DNA of 64,000 nt from an uncultured Fibrobacterota bacterium (GTDB taxonomy: Bacteria; Fibrobacterota; OXYB2-FULL-49-7; JAEUSG01), in the NCBI GenBank assembly GCA_964590225.1, contig CAZPWS010000011.1:4136-68135 (forward strand), read 5' to 3'. The notes beneath the pieces are model-generated. The model was not told the origin of the DNA, made no database searches, and saw only the letters and a program-made list of their open reading frames with translations. Positions 8,766-35,540 of this stretch are shown piece after piece (the stretch's first letter is position 1; the number at the start of each line of letters is the position of its first letter). The translations under genes and the position numbers were made by a program.

Positions 8766-9884
8766 TTATGCTACGGAATATTTTGAAGCGACATCATTAA
8801 TTGCTTTTTTATAAACCTTTTGCGCCTGTCTATACCAGAACTCATACTGCCCAGCACCAGCCTGCTTGCCTGGATCAGCACCCGCTTTTCTAAACGCATC
8901 GATCAAGTTAAGCAACTGTGGCTGTTTACCTCTGCACACTTCCACAACAAGAAGGTAGTAGTACGACTGCCAAATTCTATCCGGTATATCTTGAGGGGGG
9001 AAACGGATACAGTCTTTAAAACTCATTTCCGCTTTTTCAAGCAACTCGCTATCTTTTTTAGCGCCATTCATAAAATTATAAACAAGAAAATGGGCAAGTC
9101 CGACCTCATAAAAACGGTTTATACCTCTATCAAAGGAGGTTGCAGTAATGCAATCGGCACATAACCGATAAGCGTAATCGAGATGTTCCCTATCCGCAAA
9201 AAAAGAAAGATAATCCCCCTGTTCAACGCCGATTTTTGCAAGCATATCCTTTCTTCTGTTTGTGCTTTTTATAAGTAGCGTCCGTGCATCTGATGAATAT
9301 ATAGGCGGAAATTCCTGTCCTTCAGAGTGACAAATGAAATCTTCCTTATAAAACGATGTCAAAAGACATTCGCTGCACATTATAAGGGTATCACGATAAA
9401 AATCGATCTCTTCGTCTGTTGTACTATTTACAGCTACGGGCAGAAGCGAATGTTCTTTCCAAATAAACTTGATGGCTTGCTGGTTTAGAAATTCACTTGG
9501 GAAATCGGTATTATGACACACTGGACACTCAATAGTTGCATTAACCCAGTGAGTCCCCTTTCTTACACTGCCATAAACGGAAGCGCCAGCATCTCCATCA
9601 ACTAAGGAAATATTTGGCAAAACCCTGCAAAATTGTTCGGCAAGTTCAGCCGAACCACAAAGAATAGAAAACGAAACGCCCTGCTTTTCCAGAGTATTAT
9701 ACACATTGTTAATTAGTTTAAAGCCAACGCTATCAACACTCTTTACTCTCGACAGGTCAAGCAATACAGAGTTTCCAGAACGGACATCAGATAGCATCGT
9801 TGTAAAGAACGATTTTACCTGAACAAGATTTTTTAAATCAAATGAAAATTCTGGTCTGAGTGTTTTAAACTTTTTTGTATCCAT
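8766..9884 (-). CDS. STAS (anti-sigma-factor antagonist-like) domain fused to a DUF2225-like zinc-ribbon/helical domain
   Basis: The N-terminal ~110 aa has a STAS profile (LLDLSRVKSVDSVGFKLINNVYNTLEKQGVSFSILCGS). This is followed by CPVCHNTDF ... MCSECLLTSF, matching the Cys4 ribbon plus helical tail of DUF2225. Confidence 0.55.
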   Translation of the reverse strand: MDTKKFKTLRPEFSFDLKNLVQVKSFFTTMLSDVRSGNSVLLDLSRVKSVDSVGFKLINNVYNTLEKQGVSFSILCGSAELAEQFCRVLPNISLVDGDAGASVYGSVRKGTHWVNATIECPVCHNTDFPSEFLNQQAIKFIWKEHSLLPVAVNSTTDEEIDFYRDTLIMCSECLLTSFYKEDFICHSEGQEFPPIYSSDARTLLIKSTNRRKDMLAKIGVEQGDYLSFFADREHLDYAYRLCADCITATSFDRGINRFYEVGLAHFLVYNFMNGAKKDSELLEKAEMSFKDCIRFPPQDIPDRIWQSYYYLLVVEVCRGKQPQLLNLIDAFRKAGADPGKQAGAGQYEFWYRQAQKVYKKAINDVASKYSVA

Positions 9885-11188: not shown

Positions 11189-13483
11189 TTACCTCAGGTG
11201 AAAACGATAGGGCATGATGGCAAGCATGGAGCCGTCGCGCGCCATTTCTGTAACCGCCCCTAGAATTCTTCGCTTCACTTTGGCCTCGCCACCCGAAAGT
11301 TCCGCAAAAAACCCCCTCGGTTTAGGATATAAGTCTATTCCAATAGGTGCAGCTTCATCAAATCCCGCCCTAACTTTAGCACTGTTTATAGCCTCCGCAA
11401 GTCCCCCTATCTCGTCTATCAACCCCCTCGCTAATGCCTGCTCGCCACTAAATACCCTTCCCCTTCCAAGTACATTAGCGCTGTCCTTTGATATGTTACG
11501 CCCCTCAGCCACCCTGTTTAGGAACCCCGAGTAAAATTCCTCAAGCGAAGCCTGCATAGTGGTCACCTGTTCCTCTGAAAACTCTTTATAATCAGAAAAC
11601 AGATCAGCATTTCTGCCAAATGTAATTAACTCTTTTTTTATGCCAAATTTATCGTACAGCCCCTTTAGTACAAATTTCCCTGCAAAGACGCCTATACTAC
11701 CAATAACCGCCCCCTCACCTGCAAAAATGGCATCGGCTCCCGCCATAACGAAATATCCACCAGAAGCGGCAACATCTCCAACAGAGGCTACAACAGGCTT
11801 CCCACTCTCACGAAGCCTTTTAACTTCACGCCAAATCTGATCGGATGCAGAACCCGATCCCCCTGGGCTATTAACACGCAGCACGACGCCCTTCACCCGT
11901 TTATCTTTCCGAATTTTGGCAAGTATATCACAAATCGTACGGGAACCGACAAAGCTTTCTCCGGAGAAAAAATCGGTAAATGACTCACCATTGACTATTG
12001 TCCCTTCAATTACAACAATAGCAATTTTGCTACCTCCGCTCCACTCCCTTTTATAGTATGAGCGGTTACGCAAATTTACAGGCCGTTCCCTTTTCGGAGC
12101 CAATTCTTCGAAAATATCTCTATAATAACCGATTTCATTAATCAGCCCTATTGAGCAGGCCTCGGAAAGCGGTATTGACCCTCTGTCAAGTACAGCAGCA
12201 AAAGTATCTCTATCGACTCCCCTATCAGTTACAATGTTATCAATGAAATGGTTATACCACGAAGACAACAACATAATTTCATTTTCACGAAACTTGGCCG
12301 ACATCGAATCGTCGGTAAAGACTTCAGGATAGTTTTTATACTCTCCCACCCTTAGAAAATTAGCTTTAACTCCAAGCTTATCAAAAAGTCCCTTATAAAA
12401 CGAAACTTCCGCGCCAATGCCAGTCATAACCCAGGGTGATAACGGTTCAACTATTATTCTGTCCGCAGCAGCAGCAAGGTAGTACGAACTTGGTTCAACA
12501 CTTTCAAGACAGGCCGTTATCCGTTTGTTTACAAGCCTTAAATCTTTTATGGCACTGCGGATTTCGTCAAGCATGCCAAAACCGGCTCTAATTTGGCCTA
12601 TTCTTAGGATTATTTGTCCAATGTCCTCATCTCTCGCGCCATTTCTGAGCTGAATTAAAATATCGCTAAGCCTTTGCGCGCCTCCTCCAAACAGCGAAAA
12701 ATCGGATGCCCCATCTGTTAACACTCCACTAATTTCAATTACTGCCACTTTACGCGGTCCGTTAACAACAGGTTCTTTGCGGTCCTTGCCCATCCATAAC
12801 GCAATGGAACCATTTTTACCAGCACCATCAAGTGGATGCGAATAGCCAAATTCAGAGTTGGATAGAGAGAAAGAAAGAGCAGCATTCCATTTGTTATCGT
12901 CAGGGGAATAGGCCGCCTGAAGTGCCATACCATTTAAATCAAGGGCAAGTGTAATAGCCGTACCATTAAAAGCCGCATCAAGGTATTTTGATGATGCGCC
13001 TATTGTCACAATATTTACTGGTCTAACAGCAACACCGCATTGAAGGATATGGGCTCCTCCTGCACCAATCAATCCATCCGTTGTAATCCCAAGAGAAAGC
13101 CACTGAACTGGGCGGAACAGCGTTCCTATGTCAAATTGATAACTTGAATTGGAGACTAATCTGTTTTGAATAAAGCCAAGTCGTGTTCCAAAGGAAAGAG
13201 CTTTCGATGTACGATGCCCTGTACTGAAAAAGAATGCATCCGTCTCCTTTTCTCTTCTAAAGCCCATGCCCACCAGACCTGTAGCTATCGCGGCCTCAAT
13301 GAGAGAATCCTGCGCAAGAGAGGAATGTAGCGCTATATTGGCCCCTCTGCCTTCTGCGAGTCCGGCAGGGTTAACTATGACAGATAACGCATCGTCTCTA
13401 ATGGCCGGCGAATTATTTAAAACTGAGGACGAAATAATTGAAACGAACATCAACACAAAGAGCAGAATCTTCTTTTTACTCAT
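11189..13483 (-). CDS. sppA: Signal peptide peptidase SppA (protease IV, 67K type) with an extra N-terminal beta-rich domain
   Basis: Tandem ClpP/crotonase-fold halves with SppA motifs (VVLRVNSPGGSGSASD, catalytic Ser/Lys regions). 764 aa, with a signal peptide. Confidence 0.75.
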   Translation of the reverse strand: MSKKKILLFVLMFVSIISSSVLNNSPAIRDDALSVIVNPAGLAEGRGANIALHSSLAQDSLIEAAIATGLVGMGFRREKETDAFFFSTGHRTSKALSFGTRLGFIQNRLVSNSSYQFDIGTLFRPVQWLSLGITTDGLIGAGGAHILQCGVAVRPVNIVTIGASSKYLDAAFNGTAITLALDLNGMALQAAYSPDDNKWNAALSFSLSNSEFGYSHPLDGAGKNGSIALWMGKDRKEPVVNGPRKVAVIEISGVLTDGASDFSLFGGGAQRLSDILIQLRNGARDEDIGQIILRIGQIRAGFGMLDEIRSAIKDLRLVNKRITACLESVEPSSYYLAAAADRIIVEPLSPWVMTGIGAEVSFYKGLFDKLGVKANFLRVGEYKNYPEVFTDDSMSAKFRENEIMLLSSWYNHFIDNIVTDRGVDRDTFAAVLDRGSIPLSEACSIGLINEIGYYRDIFEELAPKRERPVNLRNRSYYKREWSGGSKIAIVVIEGTIVNGESFTDFFSGESFVGSRTICDILAKIRKDKRVKGVVLRVNSPGGSGSASDQIWREVKRLRESGKPVVASVGDVAASGGYFVMAGADAIFAGEGAVIGSIGVFAGKFVLKGLYDKFGIKKELITFGRNADLFSDYKEFSEEQVTTMQASLEEFYSGFLNRVAEGRNISKDSANVLGRGRVFSGEQALARGLIDEIGGLAEAINSAKVRAGFDEAAPIGIDLYPKPRGFFAELSGGEAKVKRRILGAVTEMARDGSMLAIMPYRFHLR

Positions 13484-15591: not shown

Positions 15592-17253
15592 ATGTCTGAT
15601 TTTATTAGTGAAGCAATTAATGAAGATCTCCAGAGCGGAAGATTTACAAAAATACACACCCGTTTCCCACCTGAACCAAATGGTTACCTCCATATCGGTC
15701 ATGCAAAGGCCATCTGTATCGATTTTGGCCTCGCAGAAAAATTTGGGGGTAAAACAAACCTCCGTTTTGATGATACTAATCCGGTCAGAGAGGATGTTGA
15801 ATTCGTCGATGCCATAAAGGATGACATTCACTGGCTCGGTTTTGACTGGGAAGAAAGACTCTATTACGCCTCAGACTATTTCGACCAGATTTTTGAATAC
15901 GCTGTAACGCTTATCAGGAAAGGCAAAGCCTTCGTTTGCGACCTTTCGTCCGATCAAATCCGTGAATATAGAGGTACGCTCACAGAGCCAGGCAAAGAGT
16001 CCCCTTTTCGCAACCGAACAGTTGATGAAAATCTTGATCTTTTTTTAAGAATGAGAAACGGAGAATTTGCGGAAGGAACAAAAACGCTTCGGGCTAAAAT
16101 CGATATGGCATCGCCAAATATCAACCTACGCGATCCTGTAATGTATAGGATAATAAATACACCTCACCACAGAACAGGCACAAAGTGGTCTATTTATCCC
16201 ATGTATGATTTTGCACACGGCCAGAGCGATTCCATAGAGGGAATTACCCATTCCCTCTGCTCGCTCGAATACGAAGACCACCGCCCCTTATACGATTGGT
16301 ACATTAAAGAGCTTGGCATATTCCATACTCGCCAAATCGAATTTGCGAGGCTTAATCTCACTTATACAGTTATGAGCAAAAGAAAGCTAATGAAACTTGT
16401 TGAGAGCGGCGTTGTATCCGGCTGGGATGATCCACGGATGCCCACTCTCGCTGGTATGCGGCGCCGTGGCTATACTGCAGAATCTATAAAGAATTTCTGC
16501 GATAGAATTGGCGTGGCAAAACGGGATAGCACCGTTGATTTTGCTTTTCTTGAGCACTGTGTCCGCGAAGTACTTAACCGTGACTCTGCCCGCATGTTTG
16601 CTGTATTACGACCATTAAAAGTGGTGATAACAAATTATCCCGAAAATTATACCGAAGAATTTGACGCAATCAACAATCCTGAGAATCCTACAGACGGAAC
16701 ACGCAAGGTTCCCTTCTCCAGAGTACTTTATATTGAACAGGATGACTTTAGGGAGGCTCCTCCTCCAAAATATTACAGGCTTTCTCCTGGTAAAGAGGTA
16801 CGACTTCGCTATGCCTACTTTATCAAGTGCAACGAGGTTATTAAGGATGGCAATGGTAACATTATTGAAATCAGATGCACTTACGATCCCGCAACAAAAG
16901 GTGGCGAGTCGCCCGATGGACGAAAGGTAAAAAGCACAATTCACTGGGTGTCTGCACAACATGCCGCCAGTGCTGAAGTAAGACTTTACAGCGTTCTCTT
17001 TTCAAAGCCAAATCCGGAAGATGTGGCTGAAGGTGGTGATTTTATCGATAACATTAATCAAAATTCAATAGAAACTGTTAAAGAGTGTAAGATAGAACCT
17101 CTTCTTTCAAAAGTAAAACCAGGAACAAAAGTTCAGTTTGAGCGGATTGGTTACTTTTGTGCGGATACTGTAGATTCCAAAGAGGGAGCACCAGTGTTTA
17201 ATCGGATTGTGACACTAAAAGACACATGGGCTAAGATTGAAAAAATGGGTTGA
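15592..17253 (+). CDS. glnS: Glutaminyl-tRNA synthetase
   Basis: [17 protein letters not shown] (HIGH), VMSKRK (KMSKS) and a GlnRS-type anticodon-binding C-terminus. 553 aa. Confidence 0.9.
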
Positions 17254-17316
17254 AAAAGCGCAAAACCCGTAAAACCTCACTTGAATATTGCTACAAAAAA
17301 ATGATTCTTTAAAAAA

Positions 17317-17400
17317 TGCCCAAGGGGGGACTTGAACCCCCAAGCTCTTGCGAGCACTAGTACCTGAAACTAGCGTGTCTGCCAATTTCACCACCTGGGC
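17317..17400 (-). tRNA. tRNA-Leu (anticodon CAG)
   Basis: The reverse complement folds as a cloverleaf with a GCCCAGG acceptor stem, anticodon loop TTCAGGT, a long variable arm (class II) and a GGTTCAAGTCC T-arm. 84 nt. Confidence 0.85.
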
Positions 17401-17430
17401 AATCATTTTGTGCTAAATATACATTTATGC

Positions 17431-18714
17431 TTATCCGTTAAGCTTTTCTTTAGTTGTCCATAAACCGGCAGAAGGGGTACTTATGAAATAAATTTCTTCG
17501 CCGTTAGGTAGTTTGTTAAAACCATTTTTTAGTTTTGCCGGATTATAGAGTTCCATAGCTTTACTGTAATCCATATAGCCGAAATTTACAGATGTTACTT
17601 CCTCTTCTGTAAGGTGCCCGGGAGCATAGGTGATTTTAAACCGACCTTCGGAAGAACCGTGTATAAGATGAGCGGTTGCGTGGGTTAAGTCCTGTAGGTC
17701 GTCATTTTCCTTCCAAAGCTTCATTATTTTTTCGGTGCCGCAATAGCCATATTTTCTTATTATTTTATCAACCGAATCCTGTTCGCCAAAGCGTTTTAAC
17801 CCTGGAGCAAGAACAATGAGCTCTCCCCCATCTGCCATTGCCTTTCTGGTTCGATATATTGACTTATTGGCCACCCATGTACTAAAAAACTCATCACCCT
17901 GCATAACAGCAACTACCTTTTTAAGGGGCGGCACAACCGTAATATTCTCTGACATGGATTGCTTTGCTGCAAGCAAATAGGTATCGACATCATCCCCGCA
18001 ATAAAAGCCTGTGTGAACAAGCTCTCCTGAAGCGTTGTAGGCCATTGTAACTTGAATATAAACATCCTTGACCTTACCGAGAAACTCCTGTTCGGCCTTG
18101 TTGTAGCAGTGCCGCAATGGAGTAACTAGTGTTCCAAGGTTGTTTTCGATCCCGTAGCAGGCAGCAGCCATATGGGAGGCGCAAATCATCTCTTTTCCGC
18201 CAAGACCGATGAAATAATTTTTGTTATGATTGGCAAAACCAAGTACTTCATGAGGTACAACATGACCAACATTAATTACAAGATCCCAGTCGTCCTGTAC
18301 AACCGCCCTGTTTATTGACACAGGAATATCCCAATCAGCACGGCCACTGGTAATCGCTTTTACATAATCAGCAGGTACTGTGCCTATACGGTCACAATCC
18401 GTAAGCCAATCGTGCTTAAGAATTCTATCCTCCGGAATATCTCCAAACATCCATTTATTTTGCTCTTCGGTGTGCGGAACATGTTGTCCAAGGGTAGGAA
18501 TTAAGTAAACTAATGCAGATTTCGAAAAATAGTCATACAAAATTTTGGTAATCCAGCCTGCACCGCTATGCGCCCTTGTAATATCAGGCGGGAGCAAAAG
18601 AACCTTCTTGGGACTTTTACAAACTCTCTTCACGCATTCATCAGCACTTTTTAGAACAAGCTGCTCTATCCTTTTCCTGCCAATTTCAGAACTCTTTTCA
18701 AAAAACCATGCCAT
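17431..18714 (-). CDS. LarA-family (lactate racemase-like, DUF2088) protein
   Basis: PPDITR ... NVGHVVPHEVLGFANHNKNYFIGLGGKE aligns to LarA SSDHTRP ... HxxxGFSGGRK and its His-rich active-site region. 427 aa. Confidence 0.6.
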   Translation of the reverse strand: MAWFFEKSSEIGRKRIEQLVLKSADECVKRVCKSPKKVLLLPPDITRAHSGAGWITKILYDYFSKSALVYLIPTLGQHVPHTEEQNKWMFGDIPEDRILKHDWLTDCDRIGTVPADYVKAITSGRADWDIPVSINRAVVQDDWDLVINVGHVVPHEVLGFANHNKNYFIGLGGKEMICASHMAAACYGIENNLGTLVTPLRHCYNKAEQEFLGKVKDVYIQVTMAYNASGELVHTGFYCGDDVDTYLLAAKQSMSENITVVPPLKKVVAVMQGDEFFSTWVANKSIYRTRKAMADGGELIVLAPGLKRFGEQDSVDKIIRKYGYCGTEKIMKLWKENDDLQDLTHATAHLIHGSSEGRFKITYAPGHLTEEEVTSVNFGYMDYSKAMELYNPAKLKNGFNKLPNGEEIYFISTPSAGLWTTKEKLNG

Positions 18715-18754
18715 TTGTCACCTCCAAAAAAAAGTTGTTAAGAGATAAAGAAAA

Positions 18755-18783
18755 TAATTTTTTTTGACGGTAAGTATAAATAA
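18755..18783 (+). promoter_or_regulatory. Sigma-70-like promoter candidate (TTGACG-N17-TATATT) upstream of the STAS gene
   Basis: -35 TTGACG at 18755-18760, a 17 nt spacer, then -10 TATATT at 18778-18783. It sits about 20 nt upstream of the ATG at 18806. Confidence 0.3.
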
Positions 18784-18805
18784 AACTATATTTTAAGCGC
18801 TTAAA

Positions 18806-19135
18806 ATGGAAATAACACTATCTACCCATCACGCTTTCAGTGTGGTTGAAGTAAGCGGTCAGATTAACTCTCTTAAGGATTCAATACAACTGAAATCCAT
18901 CATAAATACACTTTTTGATGATGGAAAACGGAATATTGCAATTAAGCTGAAAGATGTTGAGTATGTCGATAGCGCAGCAATAAATGTGCTTATATATGCG
19001 AGAAACATTGCAGACAAACTTAAAGGCGAACTTGTTATTCTCGAACCCAACGAGTACATCCTAAACATGCTCTCAGTTGTTGGAATATCAAAAATTTTCA
19101 CCATTTGCGAGAATTTAGAAACGCTTAAACGGTAA
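18806..19135 (+). CDS. Stand-alone STAS-domain protein (anti-sigma-factor antagonist family)
   Basis: 109 aa. A SpoIIAA-like profile is visible in MEITLSTHHAFSVVEVSGQINSLKDS..., but with no nearby kinase or phosphatase. Confidence 0.7.
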   Translation: MEITLSTHHAFSVVEVSGQINSLKDSIQLKSIINTLFDDGKRNIAIKLKDVEYVDSAAINVLIYARNIADKLKGELVILEPNEYILNMLSVVGISKIFTICENLETLKR

Positions 19136-19193: not shown

Positions 19194-22130
19194 ATGAGCG
19201 ATGCCAAAATTAGGCCTCTATTTTTTGTGTTATTCTCCATATGTGGTGTTGTATATGGGCAACTCGATTTATTGTTTAAGAATGGCAGCGATGGAGCTGG
19301 TTCAACCGCCTTTACAACTTTAAATCTTAATGATGGTGCTAGAAATGAAGCACTTGGCGGAAATGCGGGTAGTCTTCTTTATGGCAGTGAGGCAATCTCC
19401 GTAAACGCAGCGATGCTTGCACATACTAACCGAAGCGACCTATCTCTTTCGCATAAAGAGATGCCTATGGGTATGCGCATGGATAAGGTCTCTTTTGTTT
19501 ACCCAACATTTGAATACGGAACCTTTGGCTTCCAATGGAAAAGTTTTCGTTCTGGCTTAATTACGGATGCGCGAAACATAGACGAAGAAGTGGTAGATGT
19601 CTCAACGGGAGACATGAGTCTTGGTGCAGCATATGCGATTGCCTTTATTGACGGAACTCTCTCTGTTGGTGCATTCGGCCAGTTTCTTCAAAGCAATCTC
19701 GCAGATGCAAGCGCAAGGGGATTTTCGTTTGATATTTCAACAAGTGCGCTTATTCTACAGACATTTCGAACAACATTATCACTTCACAACATGGGAGCCG
19801 GAGTATCCTTTGGTAATGTAAAAGAACCGCTTCCGCTTGGAATCTCGACAAATATTGCGTTACCAGTTTTTGAAAACAGGGTGTCAATCACTGCGGGAAT
19901 AAAAAAGAGCGCCGGTAGCGATCTTGAAAGTGGATTTGGGATAGAAACGCACATTCATTCACTGCTGTCCTTACAAATGGGATATGCACATAGAACCGGC
20001 GAAACCGAAAAATCTGAAAAAATTTTTGATGGCCTCCGCTTCGGCACCGGAATAAACATTGGGGATTTCAAAATCAATTATGCATATTCAAAAATCAACG
20101 CTTTTCTTGGCCTAACTCACTCGATTGAAGCGCGCTACAATTTCTCTCCGCTCATACCACCTAATGCGAGCGACTACCTTCGTCGTGCCGAGCGACAATT
20201 CCGCGAGGGCCGGTTTAGTCGCTGTATTTCTTCCGCAGAGCAAGCTCTCCGGCTAAACCCCAATCTATGGCAGGCACACGCGCTTATCGAAGAAGCTCAT
20301 CGACGCCTTAAAGTCAATGAAGGAAGTATATTCGCAGTGTTCTATACCGGCAACACAAATGGTGTGTTTGTTCCAAGTTTAACCAACGGACTTGGCGGAC
20401 TTGCGCGGAGAAGCGCACTATTGAAAATGTTAAGAGATGGCTACCCTTACTCGGTAACTGTAGATGGAGGAAACCTCTGTAAGCAGGATGCTGATTCTGT
20501 TCTCTGGAAAATTGGCTTTGATGTCCTGAAGGAAATGAACTATACAGCAGTATGCGCAGGCTATAACGAAGTAGCGGCTCCAATTACCAAGATACTACCT
20601 TATATCAAGAAAAACGGTACGCCATTTATCTCTTCAACCGGAACCAAAGGAGTTGAAGCATCAACAACAATCGATGCCGGAGGAGGATATAAAATAATCG
20701 TTTCCAGTGCACTTGCAGCCTCGCGAAAAATTGACCCCCTTTTAACTTCATCAAACAGTGGGGCAACAATCAAGCTTTTACTGTTCTCAGGTACAGCTTC
20801 GCAGGCTAAATTAATCGCTCGTTCCAATCCACTAATTGACTTAATTATTTGCAGCAATGACTTAATTCCCACCTATAAAGCTATTCAGGAAGGAAGGACA
20901 ATTATTGTTTCTCCAGGGAAAGATGGCAACTACCTTGGCCAACTATTGCTTCAATGCGATAAGAATAGAAAAATAATTGGGGTTAGCAACAGACTGCATC
21001 CACTTGATGCTTCAACACCGGAGGACGAAAGAATCAAAGCAGCGCTACGGAGCCTTGTAGCTAAAGGTGATATAGCCACAATAAACGACTCCCTATTTAG
21101 ACAGGAAGATACATGGCTGCCATTTATATCAAAATATGACTTTACACTTCAATACAAGCCGAAAACCGTAAAAGATACATCTATAAATGCAGATATGCGC
21201 AGAACAGATACTACTAACCAGATATATCTTGCCTCTGTAAGGACCAATCAAAAAATACGAGTAAGCCATAACCGCCGACATAACAGGCTACCAGAAATAA
21301 ACAGACAAAAGAGCGGAGTCATTTATCTTTCAGACTCAATATCAACTGGATATAACTCAACCGATCTGTTTGTCTATTTTACTCTATACAACATAACAAG
21401 GGCAATAAAAAAAGACGACCCTTTCGCGATCCCCTTAACTGCAAAATGGTCAGCCGAAGGCGACGCAATTTATTTAATCGAAAAAGACAAAACGGGAAAA
21501 AGTGAATTGTTCCTGCAATCTGTGCGTGGAAATGGACGAATTAATATTTCAAGATCACCTGAATCATCCGAGTTTGAGGTGGCGGTTTCGCCAGACGGTA
21601 AAAATATTGCTTTTACTTCCGACCGCGAGGCCGGACAACCCATCTATATTTCAGATCCCTATGGCGAAAAACCCATGAGATTACTCAATAGTCAAGCATA
21701 CTGCGCAAATCCGGAATTTTCGGCATCGGGTAGATATCTATCATTTACCGTTAATGGCAACAGGGCAACTGGAAGCGGAGACCTCTTCCTTTTTGATACA
21801 AAAACAGGTAAGATTGACACTTTAATTGCAGGCCAACCCGTTAGTGAGGCTAAATGGGCAAATGACGAAACCATATTAGCCGTTCAGGGAGAGCTATATA
21901 CTGATATCATTAGAATCAATGTACGCGAAAAAACTTTTCACAGGCACACCGACAGAACACGGAAAGCACCAGTAAAAGAACTAACCCCCCGCCCCTTCAT
22001 GGTTGGCGACACACTTAAGGTCTATTACGAACAGGAAATTGACGGAAAAAATGAAATCTACTGGACTGAATCACCAACAAATCGCCCAATTAAATTTTAC
22101 AATCAATCAGGCGTTGTTCATTTGCGGTAA
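19194..22130 (+). CDS. 978 aa exported multidomain envelope protein: N-terminal outer-membrane beta-barrel-like domain, TPR segment, unknown central domain and C-terminal PD40/TolB-like beta-propeller
   Basis: Signal peptide. The barrel-like region ends in HSIEARYNF. TPR-like EAHRRLK ... AEQALRLNPN. Repeated PD40-type segments (SPDGKNIAFTSDREAGQPIYISD, SASGRYLSFTVNGNR...LFLFDTKTG). Confidence 0.8.
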   Translation: MSDAKIRPLFFVLFSICGVVYGQLDLLFKNGSDGAGSTAFTTLNLNDGARNEALGGNAGSLLYGSEAISVNAAMLAHTNRSDLSLSHKEMPMGMRMDKVSFVYPTFEYGTFGFQWKSFRSGLITDARNIDEEVVDVSTGDMSLGAAYAIAFIDGTLSVGAFGQFLQSNLADASARGFSFDISTSALILQTFRTTLSLHNMGAGVSFGNVKEPLPLGISTNIALPVFENRVSITAGIKKSAGSDLESGFGIETHIHSLLSLQMGYAHRTGETEKSEKIFDGLRFGTGINIGDFKINYAYSKINAFLGLTHSIEARYNFSPLIPPNASDYLRRAERQFREGRFSRCISSAEQALRLNPNLWQAHALIEEAHRRLKVNEGSIFAVFYTGNTNGVFVPSLTNGLGGLARRSALLKMLRDGYPYSVTVDGGNLCKQDADSVLWKIGFDVLKEMNYTAVCAGYNEVAAPITKILPYIKKNGTPFISSTGTKGVEASTTIDAGGGYKIIVSSALAASRKIDPLLTSSNSGATIKLLLFSGTASQAKLIARSNPLIDLIICSNDLIPTYKAIQEGRTIIVSPGKDGNYLGQLLLQCDKNRKIIGVSNRLHPLDASTPEDERIKAALRSLVAKGDIATINDSLFRQEDTWLPFISKYDFTLQYKPKTVKDTSINADMRRTDTTNQIYLASVRTNQKIRVSHNRRHNRLPEINRQKSGVIYLSDSISTGYNSTDLFVYFTLYNITRAIKKDDPFAIPLTAKWSAEGDAIYLIEKDKTGKSELFLQSVRGNGRINISRSPESSEFEVAVSPDGKNIAFTSDREAGQPIYISDPYGEKPMRLLNSQAYCANPEFSASGRYLSFTVNGNRATGSGDLFLFDTKTGKIDTLIAGQPVSEAKWANDETILAVQGELYTDIIRINVREKTFHRHTDRTRKAPVKELTPRPFMVGDTLKVYYEQEIDGKNEIYWTESPTNRPIKFYNQSGVVHLR

Positions 22131-26249: not shown

Positions 26250-28040
26250 TTAAGTATCTCTTCGCCACCTTGCACGCAGAATATGGGCTGCCATTTTAGG
26301 CTGCCTTTGCCTCGTAAAAACCCCTTTTTTATTACCCGCCACACGGTTAACTGCTTGCTTTGTAGCAAAGTCAGCAAAATTCCACACATGCTCGCCAATC
26401 ATAAAGTCACATTTATCAAAAGCCTTGTGGTAACATTCAAGTATGGCACATTGATATTCTTCCGAAAACATAATAGCGGGCTCCTGATGTAGCCCAGCTA
26501 TGGTATCTGCGCCGTATTCCGCACATAGAACCGGTTTACCGTACTTTTCCCACCATCCAGTTATTTCGTTTGTAACCCGCGCTTCTGCAACTGCTAATTG
26601 GCCCGGTTCTGAGTACCACGCATAGTAACGGTTAAAACAAATTACATCACAAAGGTCACCAACCAGATCCGGTACGGGATACCATGCCTCGTAAGTTGGA
26701 AGAGACGACTGCACTATGGTAATAGGGCGCGATGAATCCAATTCCCTTGCACGCTTAAAAAGTGTTTCAAAATAGGGTCTGGAGCTCTTTTCGTATGTTG
26801 CAGCTTCGTTTGCCAGGCTCCACATAACCACACACGGATGGTTATAATCTCGTTCAAATGTCGCATTCAAGGTATCAAGATGGTGGGCAAGTGTAGCATC
26901 TCCGATTACCTGACTGTTAAATACCTCTTCAGGTTTGTGTGGATGCCAAAAATTCATACCAACGGCCGGCAACTCATCGATCACGAGAATACCCCTTTTG
27001 TCTGCCAGTTGAAGGGTTTCTTCGGCATAAGGGTAATGTGCAGTACGAAAACTGTTTGCACCAATCCAGTCAAGTAAATTAAAATCCTTAAGCATTAACG
27101 CCATATCAAAACCACGGCCATTGATATCCATGTCTTCGTGCTTACCAAACCCCTTAAAATAAAAAGGCTCACCATTAACTAAAAACTGTTTACCCTGTAT
27201 CTCTATAGACCGAAAGCCAAAATTTTCCCTATACAAATCACCTTCATCACTGTCTAACCTGATTTCAAAAGTGTATAAATATGCCTTGCCTGGATTCCAT
27301 AAACATGGATTTTTTATTGTTATAGAACCATTAAAACCACTCCCCACTGCAACGCAATTATTTGTCTCATCTATGACCCTGATAGCAGTGGTTGCATGAG
27401 TTGCGCCATCAACATCTACACTGTATAAAAGCGTACCTGTTTTCCGTTTAAGATCAATATTCGGCTGTAGGCGAATTCGTTGTATTTTGGTTTGTGGTGT
27501 CGTATATAGCGTAACAGAGCGGTGAATTCCTGCATAATTAAAAAAATCGAAAAAAGTTTCCTGTTTAGGCAATGCAATAGAGTCACTAGGAGGAATAAGT
27601 GTACCAGTTGGTAAGCAGGTATAGTCAAGACGGTTGTCAACAACAACGGACAGACGGTTCTCTTTTCCGGAATTATAATGGGCGGTTATTTCAAATTCGA
27701 ACGGAAGAAATCCCCCTTTATGAGAGCCTAGCTCCTGTCCATTTAACCAAACAGTTGCATGATGCGTAACCGAGCCAAAACGCAGCCATACCCGTTTATT
27801 TTTCCATGTTTGCGGCACAAAAAAAGTTCTTTCGTACCATACAAGACCTATATGATCACGCAACGATGGATCCTGTGTAATGTCATTATAACTCGCCGGA
27901 ACAGCCATTTCAGTTGAACCTAACAGGTTTGATTTGTACCAGCCAAGCTCAACCCCATTCCCCCGTTCATCTTTTTTAAATGCCCACAAGCCGTCCAGCT
28001 TATTTGTTTCTCTGACCTCATTGGACTGCGGAAATAGCAT
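26250..28040 (-). CDS. uidA: GH2 beta-glucuronidase
   Basis: Block-for-block similar to E. coli GusA: KLDGLWAF, FFNYAGIHRSV, LLDWIGANSFRTAHYPYAEE, MWSLANE, EEYQCA, IGEHVWNFADFATKQ, GNKKGVFTRQRQPK. Confidence 0.9.
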   Translation of the reverse strand: MLFPQSNEVRETNKLDGLWAFKKDERGNGVELGWYKSNLLGSTEMAVPASYNDITQDPSLRDHIGLVWYERTFFVPQTWKNKRVWLRFGSVTHHATVWLNGQELGSHKGGFLPFEFEITAHYNSGKENRLSVVVDNRLDYTCLPTGTLIPPSDSIALPKQETFFDFFNYAGIHRSVTLYTTPQTKIQRIRLQPNIDLKRKTGTLLYSVDVDGATHATTAIRVIDETNNCVAVGSGFNGSITIKNPCLWNPGKAYLYTFEIRLDSDEGDLYRENFGFRSIEIQGKQFLVNGEPFYFKGFGKHEDMDINGRGFDMALMLKDFNLLDWIGANSFRTAHYPYAEETLQLADKRGILVIDELPAVGMNFWHPHKPEEVFNSQVIGDATLAHHLDTLNATFERDYNHPCVVMWSLANEAATYEKSSRPYFETLFKRARELDSSRPITIVQSSLPTYEAWYPVPDLVGDLCDVICFNRYYAWYSEPGQLAVAEARVTNEITGWWEKYGKPVLCAEYGADTIAGLHQEPAIMFSEEYQCAILECYHKAFDKCDFMIGEHVWNFADFATKQAVNRVAGNKKGVFTRQRQPKMAAHILRARWRRDT

Positions 28041-34253: not shown

Positions 34254-35540
34254 TTAGTTTACAGTTATAGCCTTACCCTGTCCTCTATAAAGGTCAAGTT
34301 CACCTTCTAACTCGATTTTTATTACAGTTGCGTATTTGTCTATCTCAGATTCTGGTATGTTTATCCATAGCACACCAGGGATGGGAATTTTCATCCAAGG
34401 CGCTCCTCCAATCATTTTATAATCGAGTTCTCTCCCACTCTTAAGAGCGGAAATCCGCTTAATTCTATTATTGATACCCTTTATAGCAACTGCGTCCCAC
34501 GGGCGATCGAATAGATAGGCATAAATTACAGTACGATCCTTAGATAGTGTAGTTGCCCCATAAAAATGGCCTGCTGGAAGACCGGCAACCGTACCATAAA
34601 CAGCCTCAGAATGATTTTTTATCCAGCCTCCAAGCTCTTTTAATACCGCTACTTGCTCTTCAGGAATGGTTCCATCTGGCTTTGGACCAATATCAAGCAG
34701 CAGATTTCCTCCCATACCAATGCATTCAACAAAAGTTCTTATTATTTGTCGTGGTGTCTTGTAGTTTTTATCACGAGGTTGATATCCCCATGAGTCGTTG
34801 ATGGTCATGCAAAATTCCCACTGCCCTTCCGGAGCTATTATAGGAAAAGCTTGTTCGGGAGTTTCATAGTCACCATGACCATGCATACGAGAGTTAAGAA
34901 TAACTTCCGGCTGCCAACTGTGAAGTAAGTCCCTCAACTCCTTCATTTTCCACTGCTCGGGACTCGGCCACCAGTCACCATCAAACCAAAGTAAATCTAT
35001 TTTTCCAAACTCTGTACACAATTCTTTCAACTGCGCACGATGAAATCTTAAAAACTCTTTCCATTGTGGATCATCACCGAACTTATAGGGGTGAGCTGGT
35101 GAGCAAACGGTCTCTTGGGTCCGTTTATTTACTGGTACCTGAGGTGCATATCCTGGGTGTGACCAGTCAAGTTGTGAAAAATAAAGTCCTACCTGAATCC
35201 CTTCAGCACGAATGGCATCACAATAGGGCGCAACAAGATCCCGACCAGCAGGGGAGCTTTTAACGCAATTTAGATCGCTCTCCTTCGTGTTCCAAAGAGC
35301 AAATCCATCGTGATGTTTTGCGGTTAGTACGGCATATTTCGCGCCCGCTTCCTTAAAAAGTTTTGCCCACTCATTGGGGTTATACTTTTCACCAGTAAAT
35401 CCATCCTTCTGTTTAAAGTAATCTTCGTAGGAGATTTCCCCGTTAAAAAAAGACCACGACTCAGCTATTCCGTTAACAGCATAGATTCCCCAATGGATAA
35501 AAATACCAAGCTTTGCGTCAGTGAACCACGGTTGCATCAT
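34254..35540 (-). CDS. GH29 alpha-L-fucosidase
   Basis: N-terminus WFTDAKLGIFIHWGIYAV ... AKHHDGFALWNT is typical of GH29. 428 aa. Confidence 0.8.
   Translation of the reverse strand: MMQPWFTDAKLGIFIHWGIYAVNGIAESWSFFNGEISYEDYFKQKDGFTGEKYNPNEWAKLFKEAGAKYAVLTAKHHDGFALWNTKESDLNCVKSSPAGRDLVAPYCDAIRAEGIQVGLYFSQLDWSHPGYAPQVPVNKRTQETVCSPAHPYKFGDDPQWKEFLRFHRAQLKELCTEFGKIDLLWFDGDWWPSPEQWKMKELRDLLHSWQPEVILNSRMHGHGDYETPEQAFPIIAPEGQWEFCMTINDSWGYQPRDKNYKTPRQIIRTFVECIGMGGNLLLDIGPKPDGTIPEEQVAVLKELGGWIKNHSEAVYGTVAGLPAGHFYGATTLSKDRTVIYAYLFDRPWDAVAIKGINNRIKRISALKSGRELDYKMIGGAPWMKIPIPGVLWINIPESEIDKYATVIKIELEGELDLYRGQGKAITVN

Follow-up and report, generated by a model that had tools for sequence, protein, structure and literature searches.

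Several branches of the LarA superfamily bear on the gene examined here, a 427-residue open reading frame (ORF) within a 64,000-nucleotide stretch of DNA from an uncultured Fibrobacterota bacterium (contig CAZPWS010000011.1; the whole stretch is called the window below). One comprises the lactate racemases, such as LarA of Lactiplantibacillus plantarum and Thermoanaerobacterium thermosaccharolyticum (5HUQ, 2YJG), which carry F,F,W,E/Q at four specificity positions, the corresponding signature of gluconate 2-epimerases being E,V,A,H (Urdiain-Arraiza et al. 2024, PMC11770544). Another is LarA homologue (LarAH) group 20, to which GntE2 (TM0442) of Thermotoga maritima belongs, a D-gluconate/D-mannonate 2-epimerase of known structure (4NAR) (Desguin et al. 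2020, Sci Rep 10:18123, PMC7583248). Together with group 19, the group of GntE1, and group 18, it shares features of a loop (E-V/S), of helix alpha11 (Trp), and of helix alpha14 (Ala/Val) (Desguin et al. 2020, PMC7583248). The context of 25 group-18 genes has been tabulated as well: a short-chain dehydrogenase/reductase (SDR) accompanies 36%, a 6-phosphogluconate dehydrogenase (Gnd) 32%, a ribokinase-type kinase 16%, and glucuronate isomerase and KduI 12% each (PMC7583248 Table S1). Finally, LarAH group 21, of unknown function, is associated in 100% of cases, in 6 genomes, with STAS, an anti-sigma kinase, RsbU, and a HAMP protein (PMC7583248 Table S1).

Where does the window gene fall among these branches? 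We found that it belongs, as an intact gene, to LarAH group 18. Judged from its sequence, it probably encodes a nickel-pincer nucleotide (NPN)-dependent 2-epimerase of a hexonate, with D-mannonate and D-gluconate as the most probable pair, the cofactor genes lying elsewhere in the genome and the adjacent STAS gene being unrelated to it. The gene and its translation signal are located as follows:

17431..18714, reverse strand: LarAH group-18 gene (427 amino acids, ATG start), putative NPN-dependent hexonate 2-epimerase, from NF052594, Pfam Lar_N, the 4NAR match, and the invariant residues
18719..18725, reverse strand: Shine-Dalgarno sequence GGAGGTG, 4 nt before the LarAH ATG, read from the sequence

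The N terminus of the protein, MAWFFEK, agrees with the family consensus, which indicates that the start codon is right and the gene model sound. The protein matched the NCBIfam model NF052594, "nickel-dependent putative hexonate epimerase", with 580 bits against a cutoff of 500, and the alignment ran over the full length (residues 11-420 on model positions 5-410 of 411). The Pfam domain Lar_N was found with 50.9 bits against a cutoff of 23.3 (E 1.5e-13). On the other hand, the equivalog model of LarA lactate racemases, NF033504, gave only 28.5 bits against a cutoff of 460, and two malate racemase models (53 and 39 bits) and the LarAH10 model (35 bits) stayed far below their cutoffs of 462-540. 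Group 18 is already curated (NCBIfam NF052594; group 18 of Desguin 2020), and the gene is a new member of a catalogued, experimentally uncharacterized branch.

The structural comparisons pointed in the same direction. The best sequence match in the Protein Data Bank (PDB) was 4NAR, the GntE2 structure (E 2.3e-35), with Mar2 and LarA of T. thermosaccharolyticum far behind. An AlphaFold2 model of moderate quality (predicted local distance difference test score, pLDDT, 71; predicted template modeling score, pTM, 0.74) shows a predicted two-domain LarA fold, and all 17 matches returned by a Foldseek search of the PDB at E<=0.001 were LarA-family structures. The best was again 4NAR, with a template modeling (TM) score of 0.72, and LarA itself was a distant match (TM 0.57-0.60, 13-18% identity). 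An earlier reading made from the letters alone (the sequence-only reading) had suggested a non-lactate substrate, and comparison with the characterized LarA members bears this out: by the equivalog models and by the nearest structure, the protein does not group with the lactate racemases, so a non-lactate substrate is the right expectation. A true lactate racemase with its accessory genes elsewhere in the genome would explain the Lar_N domain, as well as the label "nickel-dependent lactate racemase" that the sources attach to the protein. We consider this scarcely credible, however, in view of the NF033504 score, the remoteness of the LarA structures as fold matches, and the replacement of the pocket residues F175/F176/W358 by E156/V157/A348. 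By its sequence, the protein is not a lactate racemase.

We then mapped the active site. Residues were assigned position by position in a single-sequence alignment to LarA_Tt (2YJG); among the PDB sequences, LarA 5HUQ lay beyond the reach of a narrow profile built from 22 group-18 proteins. In this alignment, K165 of the window protein corresponds to the cofactor-tethering lysine K184 of LarA, H181 to the nickel-ligating histidine H200, and H78 and H155 to the two catalytic, proton-shuttling histidines H108 and H174; D44 and R47 correspond to D72 and R75. Alignment to Mar2 pairs W280 with Y294 and K284 with K298, and alignment to 4NAR pairs A348 with W358 and H349 with T359. None of the twelve positions D44, R47, H78, H155, K165, H181, K284, E156, V157, W280, A348, and H349 varies among 22 relatives, which represent at least eight phyla (Bacteroidota, Ignavibacteriota, Bacillota, Verrucomicrobiota, Lentisphaerota, Planctomycetota, Spirochaetota, Hydrogenedentes, and Kiritimatiellia). 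By alignment, then, every residue that tethers or ligates the NPN in LarA is kept, along with the catalytic histidine pair. The conserved lysine and histidines, on which the sequence-only reading had made NPN function depend, are present (K165, H78, H155, H181) and do not vary among the relatives.

The four specificity positions (F175, F176, W358, and T359 of LarA) are occupied by E156, V157, A348, and H349, and the loop with E156-V157, W280 in alpha11, and A348 in alpha14 together form the signature common to groups 18-20. The full-length equivalog match and these shared features tie the window protein to group 18. With GntE2 and GntE1 it has in common the same E,V,A,H, the catalytic residues, and the NPN residues, GntE2 also being its best match of solved structure, whereas its identity to GntE2 is 24-30% and it falls in a separate clade with a separate model. 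With LarA it shares the fold, the tethering lysine, the nickel-ligand histidine, the catalytic histidine pair, and the Asp/Arg pair, whereas the identity is 13-18% and the window gene has no larBCDE operon beside it. Furthermore, the F-F-W pocket of LarA is hydrophobic, whereas the window protein presents E-V-A plus a histidine, which would suit a polyhydroxylated substrate.

Because the LarA fold and these residues are held in common, the hydride-shuttle mechanism is presumably the same. The NPN would be tethered to K165, with its nickel ligated by H181. A hydride would pass from C2 of the 2-hydroxy acid to the pyridinium C4 of the NPN while one histidine takes the hydroxyl proton, which would leave a planar 2-keto intermediate. 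Return of the hydride to the opposite face, with the other histidine donating a proton, would then invert the C2 hydroxyl. The substrate is put forward with lower certainty; it would be a hexonate, most probably in the interconversion of D-mannonate and D-gluconate. In this way, mannonate from the breakdown of glucuronate and fructuronate might be diverted to gluconate, then to 6-phosphogluconate, and so into the pentose-phosphate route. As in the Thermotoga route, such a step would connect the reduction of fructuronate with the phosphorylation of gluconate and with Gnd. The NPN would be supplied by LarB, LarC, and LarE encoded elsewhere in the Fibrobacterota genome. We infer the inversion at C2 from the established chemistry of the family and, more weakly, the substrate from the signature residues plus Limibacterium-type operons.

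These operons came to light in the neighborhoods of 80 related loci, for which flanks of up to 10 kb on each side were taken and the ORFs called and clustered. In Limibacterium fermenti (CP159486, complete genome, 3.73 Mb region; L032/L087 8032-14363), a same-strand run encodes, in order, an SDR, a PfkB-type sugar kinase, LarAH18 (the group-18 homologue), LarE, LarB, and Gnd. By its model score (365.8 bits against 281), the SDR falls in the D-mannonate oxidoreductase subfamily, and Gnd reaches 754.7 bits against 426.7. This context, with its SDR reductase, kinase, and Gnd, is comparable to the pathway context of GntE2 and GntE1, whereas the kinase differs in type: the group 20 context lists COG1070-type sugar kinases (PMC7583248 Table S1), and that of Limibacterium is PfkB-type. 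A LytTR two-component pair lies ahead of the SDR-to-Gnd run. In a planctomycete locus (L052), a Gnd fragment adjoins LarAH18. The SDR neighbors in planctomycetes had been grouped as mannonate oxidoreductases by a BLAST cluster; we rejected this assignment, since the NCBIfam models make them generic SDRs and only the Limibacterium SDR passes.

Could the protein work without cofactor genes at its side? A Pfam scan that covered the 53 window ORFs reaching 90 amino acids, along with a partial ORF at the left edge, gave no match to AIRC (LarB), DUF111 (LarC), or a LarE-type PP-loop protein, in agreement with the sequence-only reading, which had found larB, larC, and larE missing from the window. 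Overlapping Logan contigs extended the view by 4-6 kb beyond each window end and revealed no lar genes there; they carry PurH and PurC on one side and MBOAT, ALGX, and two proteins of unknown function on the other. The term "orphan" holds at the ~75-kb scale only. Among the 80 related loci, larE and then larB follow LarAH18 directly on the same strand in 7, all Bacteroidales (LarE, TIGR00268 301.7 bits against 150; LarB, NF033503 282 bits against 175). Among 89 putative operon partners, drawn from 69 loci, a Pfam census counted NAD_synthase-type domains in 8 and AIRC in 7. Only these LarE-type and AIRC (LarB) domains recur, and the rest reflect housekeeping genes or lineage-specific synteny, such as glyQS with a ComB-like protein in Thermoguttaceae. 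About 90% of the related loci have no lar genes nearby; consequently, their lack in the window is the norm for group 18 and says little about function. Even in L. fermenti, larC was not found within 10 kb of LarAH18, despite the adjacent larE and larB. A LarE-like fragment of ~100 amino acids directly follows LarAH18 in a Prolixibacteraceae metagenome-assembled genome (MAG; L025 11365-11664) and may be a decayed larE.

The same observations bear on the idea that the gene is a cofactor-less relic, or encodes an NPN-independent protein, in a genome devoid of LarB, LarC, and LarE. Such a relic would fit the absence of lar biosynthesis genes within ~75 kb and the three related Fibrobacterota contigs whose gltX-glnS locus lacks a LarAH gene, but we regard it as very unlikely: all catalytic and cofactor residues are intact and invariant, the protein aligns to the family over its full length and without gaps, the Shine-Dalgarno sequence is strong, the codon usage is native, and dispersal of the lar genes is normal, as the related loci and the separation of larC from larE and larB in Limibacterium illustrate.

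A broader alternative concerns the substrate. The protein might be an NPN-dependent epimerase of another sugar acid, either another hexonate stereoisomer or a phosphorylated hexonate, for example interconverting 6-phospho-D-mannonate and 6-phospho-D-gluconate. Group 18 stands as a clade, and has an NCBIfam model, separate from the assayed GntE groups 19 and 20, and the protein shares just 24-30% identity with GntE2. Desguin et al. suspect that the native substrate of GntE1, from the sister group 19, is not mannonate (PMC7583248). The high identity across phyla (65-81%) suggests a tightly defined substrate, and the ribokinase-type kinase and Gnd neighbors fit a kinase-first order equally well. 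Such an order is known from Lactobacillus suebicus extracts, in which a kinase acts first and is followed by a 6-phosphomannonate 2-epimerase whose gene is still unidentified (PMC6978723). On the other hand, the protein reproduces the GntE signature E,V,A,H at all four specificity positions, no feature for binding phosphate was recognized in it, and the L. suebicus paper implicates no LarA homologue (PMC6978723). We therefore consider a different sugar-acid substrate a real but less probable alternative. The more specific proposal, that group-18 homologues are not plain gluconate 2-epimerases but account for the missing 6-phosphomannonate/6-phosphogluconate 2-epimerase or act on another hexonate, is quite doubtful. 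If it were true, it would supply a gene for the orphan L. suebicus activity and explain both the kinase and Gnd neighbors and the high cross-phylum conservation.

Several observations weigh against the assignment as a mannonate/gluconate 2-epimerase that we prefer. The neighborhoods of the 80 related loci are heterogeneous, most of them having a housekeeping or varying context, and the cofactor genes are the only recurrent functional neighbors. In a Tannerellaceae MAG (L023 408-5429), the same-strand genes after LarAH18 encode an FGGY kinase (rhaB), L-rhamnose isomerase (rhaA), and the RhaT symporter (rhaT), a rhamnose context at odds with a role in hexuronate breakdown, and one related locus places LarAH18 beside a D-2-hydroxyacid dehydrogenase. 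No sugar-acid neighbors (uxaC, uxuA/B, a kinase, or gnd) were found among the Pfam-scanned ORFs of the window. Hexonate epimerization by group 18 was only hypothesized by Desguin et al. (PMC7583248), both source papers call the function hypothetical, the 2024 follow-up assayed no group-18 member (PMC11770544), and our literature search for LarAH18 gave no assay of any member. In addition, the assayed GntE2 shares just 24-30% identity with the protein, and the structural model, whose pLDDT is only 71, has active-site loops predicted with low confidence. Within the window, a single gene, a possible source of glucuronate, hints at a pathway link:

26250..28040, reverse strand: beta-glucuronidase (GH2) gene, NF007538 equivalog, 783.7 bits against 544

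It lies 7.5 kb from the LarAH gene, with housekeeping genes in between.

What would the mannonate/gluconate assignment mean if it holds? Group 18 is one of the largest branches of the LarA superfamily, with >7,900 homologues in at least 8 phyla and a function that is putative. The signature residues, the larE-larB adjacency in Bacteroidales, and the Limibacterium operon together point to a nickel-dependent shunt from mannonate through gluconate to the pentose-phosphate route, and L. fermenti is a cultured, tractable organism in which the function of group 18 could be studied. The window gene itself is ordinary, a well-conserved native metabolic gene that slightly extends the known host range, to Fibrobacterota; the phylum tables of PMC7583248 and PMC11770544 do not list this phylum. 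Unlike a third of the group, it has no SDR, Gnd, or kinase neighbors and sits among housekeeping genes (gltX, glnS, tRNA-Leu).

The history of the gene was examined next. The exact protein was found only in the Logan metagenome runs SRR13617028-46 and in one NCBI contig, and its gene order was the same each time. Hundreds of group-18 members in many phyla share 65-81% identity with it, the best match among GTDB species representatives reaching 81%, so that its conservation equals or exceeds that of GlnRS (~71% across phyla) and exceeds that of PNPase. The PNPase of the window is 82% and 72% identical to those of Fibrobacteres and Fibrobacterota MAGs, respectively, 68% to that of Raymondbacteria, and at most ~61% to other matches, values that put the organism in Fibrobacterota. 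In a neighbor-joining tree, the LarAH protein is sister to a Bacteroidota/Ignavibacteriota clade, a placement that is compatible with descent inside the Fibrobacterota-Chlorobiota-Bacteroidota (FCB) group. In the same tree, Paenibacillaceae are nested beside a Bacteroidota sequence, which indicates that the family has moved horizontally. The composition of the gene (GC 0.423, GC at third codon positions 0.386, codon fit z=+1.55) appears native, and with its strong Shine-Dalgarno sequence and codon fit the gene looks expressed. Recent horizontal transfer beside the tRNA gene was considered and rejected, as there was no compositional signal of it. Three related Fibrobacterota contigs keep gltX-glnS, differ downstream, and have no LarA homologue there; they are too distant to date the acquisition.

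Is the divergent STAS gene a functional partner of the epimerase? The elements around the LarAH gene are listed below.

15592..17253, forward strand: glnS, convergent with the LarAH gene, with tRNA-Leu in between, from the ORF call
17316..17401, reverse strand: tRNA-Leu(CAG), 29 nt 3' of the LarAH stop codon and on the same strand, from ARAGORN and Rfam (tRNA, 49.3 bits)
18715..18805, no strand: divergent intergenic region between LarAH and STAS, exactly 91 nt, from the ORF calls and the sequence
18764..18792, forward strand: sigma-70-like TTGACG-17-TATATT, 13 nt before the STAS ATG, matching at 10/12 positions
18790..18807, no strand: 18-bp perfect palindrome ATTTTAAGCGCTTAAAAT, sharing bases with both the -10-like hexamer and the start codon of STAS, read from the sequence
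18806..19135, forward strand: stand-alone STAS / anti-sigma-factor-antagonist gene (109 amino acids), Pfam STAS 2.3e-11, TIGR00377 55.7 bits against 53.45
19194..22130, forward strand: 978-residue protein, 58 nt after the STAS gene and on the same strand, with a PorV/PorQ-like N-terminal part, a UshA/5'-nucleotidase-like middle part, and TolB/PD40 beta-propeller repeats

The layout in the sequence-only reading was accurate: coordinates and Pfam matches confirm a LarA-family homologue divergent from a stand-alone STAS gene across a shared 91 nt, and ARAGORN and Rfam agree on the tRNA-Leu between the homologue and glnS. The sigma-70-like promoter that it gave to the STAS gene fared less well. 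The match is there, but it is not distinctive, as the 2.1-kb AT-rich region holds 9 matches of this 10/12 type against 5.6 +/- 2.2 in shuffles; the match ahead of STAS is not beyond chance. The palindrome ATTTTAAGCGCTTAAAAT occurs once in the window, even with 3 mismatches allowed, and could act as an operator. No Rfam family matched the LarAH leader or the 91-nt region as a riboswitch or other RNA element.

A functional pair, in which partner-switching regulation is coupled to the epimerase as the group 21 context suggests, would make sense of the shared 91-nt region with its 18-bp perfect palindrome and of the kept, phosphorylatable Ser56, which in the alignment takes the place of the serine that is phosphorylated in TM1442 and SpoIIAA. 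Group 21 likewise has a LarA homologue adjoining a STAS gene, and its association with STAS, the anti-sigma kinase, and RsbU is complete in the 6 genomes (PMC7583248 Table S1). However, group 21 loci also include a kinase, a phosphatase, a HAMP protein, a permease, and a binding protein, whereas the window has the STAS gene only. The window gene belongs to group 18 and not to group 21, and neither an anti-sigma kinase nor a PP2C phosphatase was found among the Pfam-scanned window ORFs. Furthermore, phmmer searches with the STAS protein and with the 978-residue protein found no homologue among the 1069 ORFs within 10 kb at the 80 related loci, and the LarAH-STAS adjacency occurs in 0/80 relatives. 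Taken together, the group assignment, the missing partner kinase and phosphatase, and the missing adjacency argue against a link between STAS and LarAH, and we consider a functional pair very improbable. The divergent arrangement is probably coincidental and the STAS neighbor probably unrelated in function. The 978-residue PorV/TolB-like protein, 58 nt downstream, is a more natural and more likely partner of STAS than LarAH is.

The combination of PorV/PorQ-, UshA-, and TolB-like parts in the 978-residue protein is an unusual fusion. A second STAS-containing protein of 372 amino acids is encoded at 8766-9884 on the reverse strand; it has an N-terminal STAS domain, and its remaining ~280 residues gave no Pfam or NCBIfam match. 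A promoter-like ATTACA-17-TATAAT, matching at 10/12 positions (17542-17570, reverse strand), is embedded in the LarAH coding sequence at its 3' end. The tRNA-Leu gene follows ~140 nt downstream, and the match could serve as its promoter. In the Logan contigs, a 55-residue ORF of the YjfB_motility family, below the ORF length threshold used for the window (at least 90 amino acids scanned), lies between the S49 peptidase gene and thiL (window ~13100-13190; L004 9081-9248). Finally, an alpha-L-fucosidase is encoded at 34254-35540.

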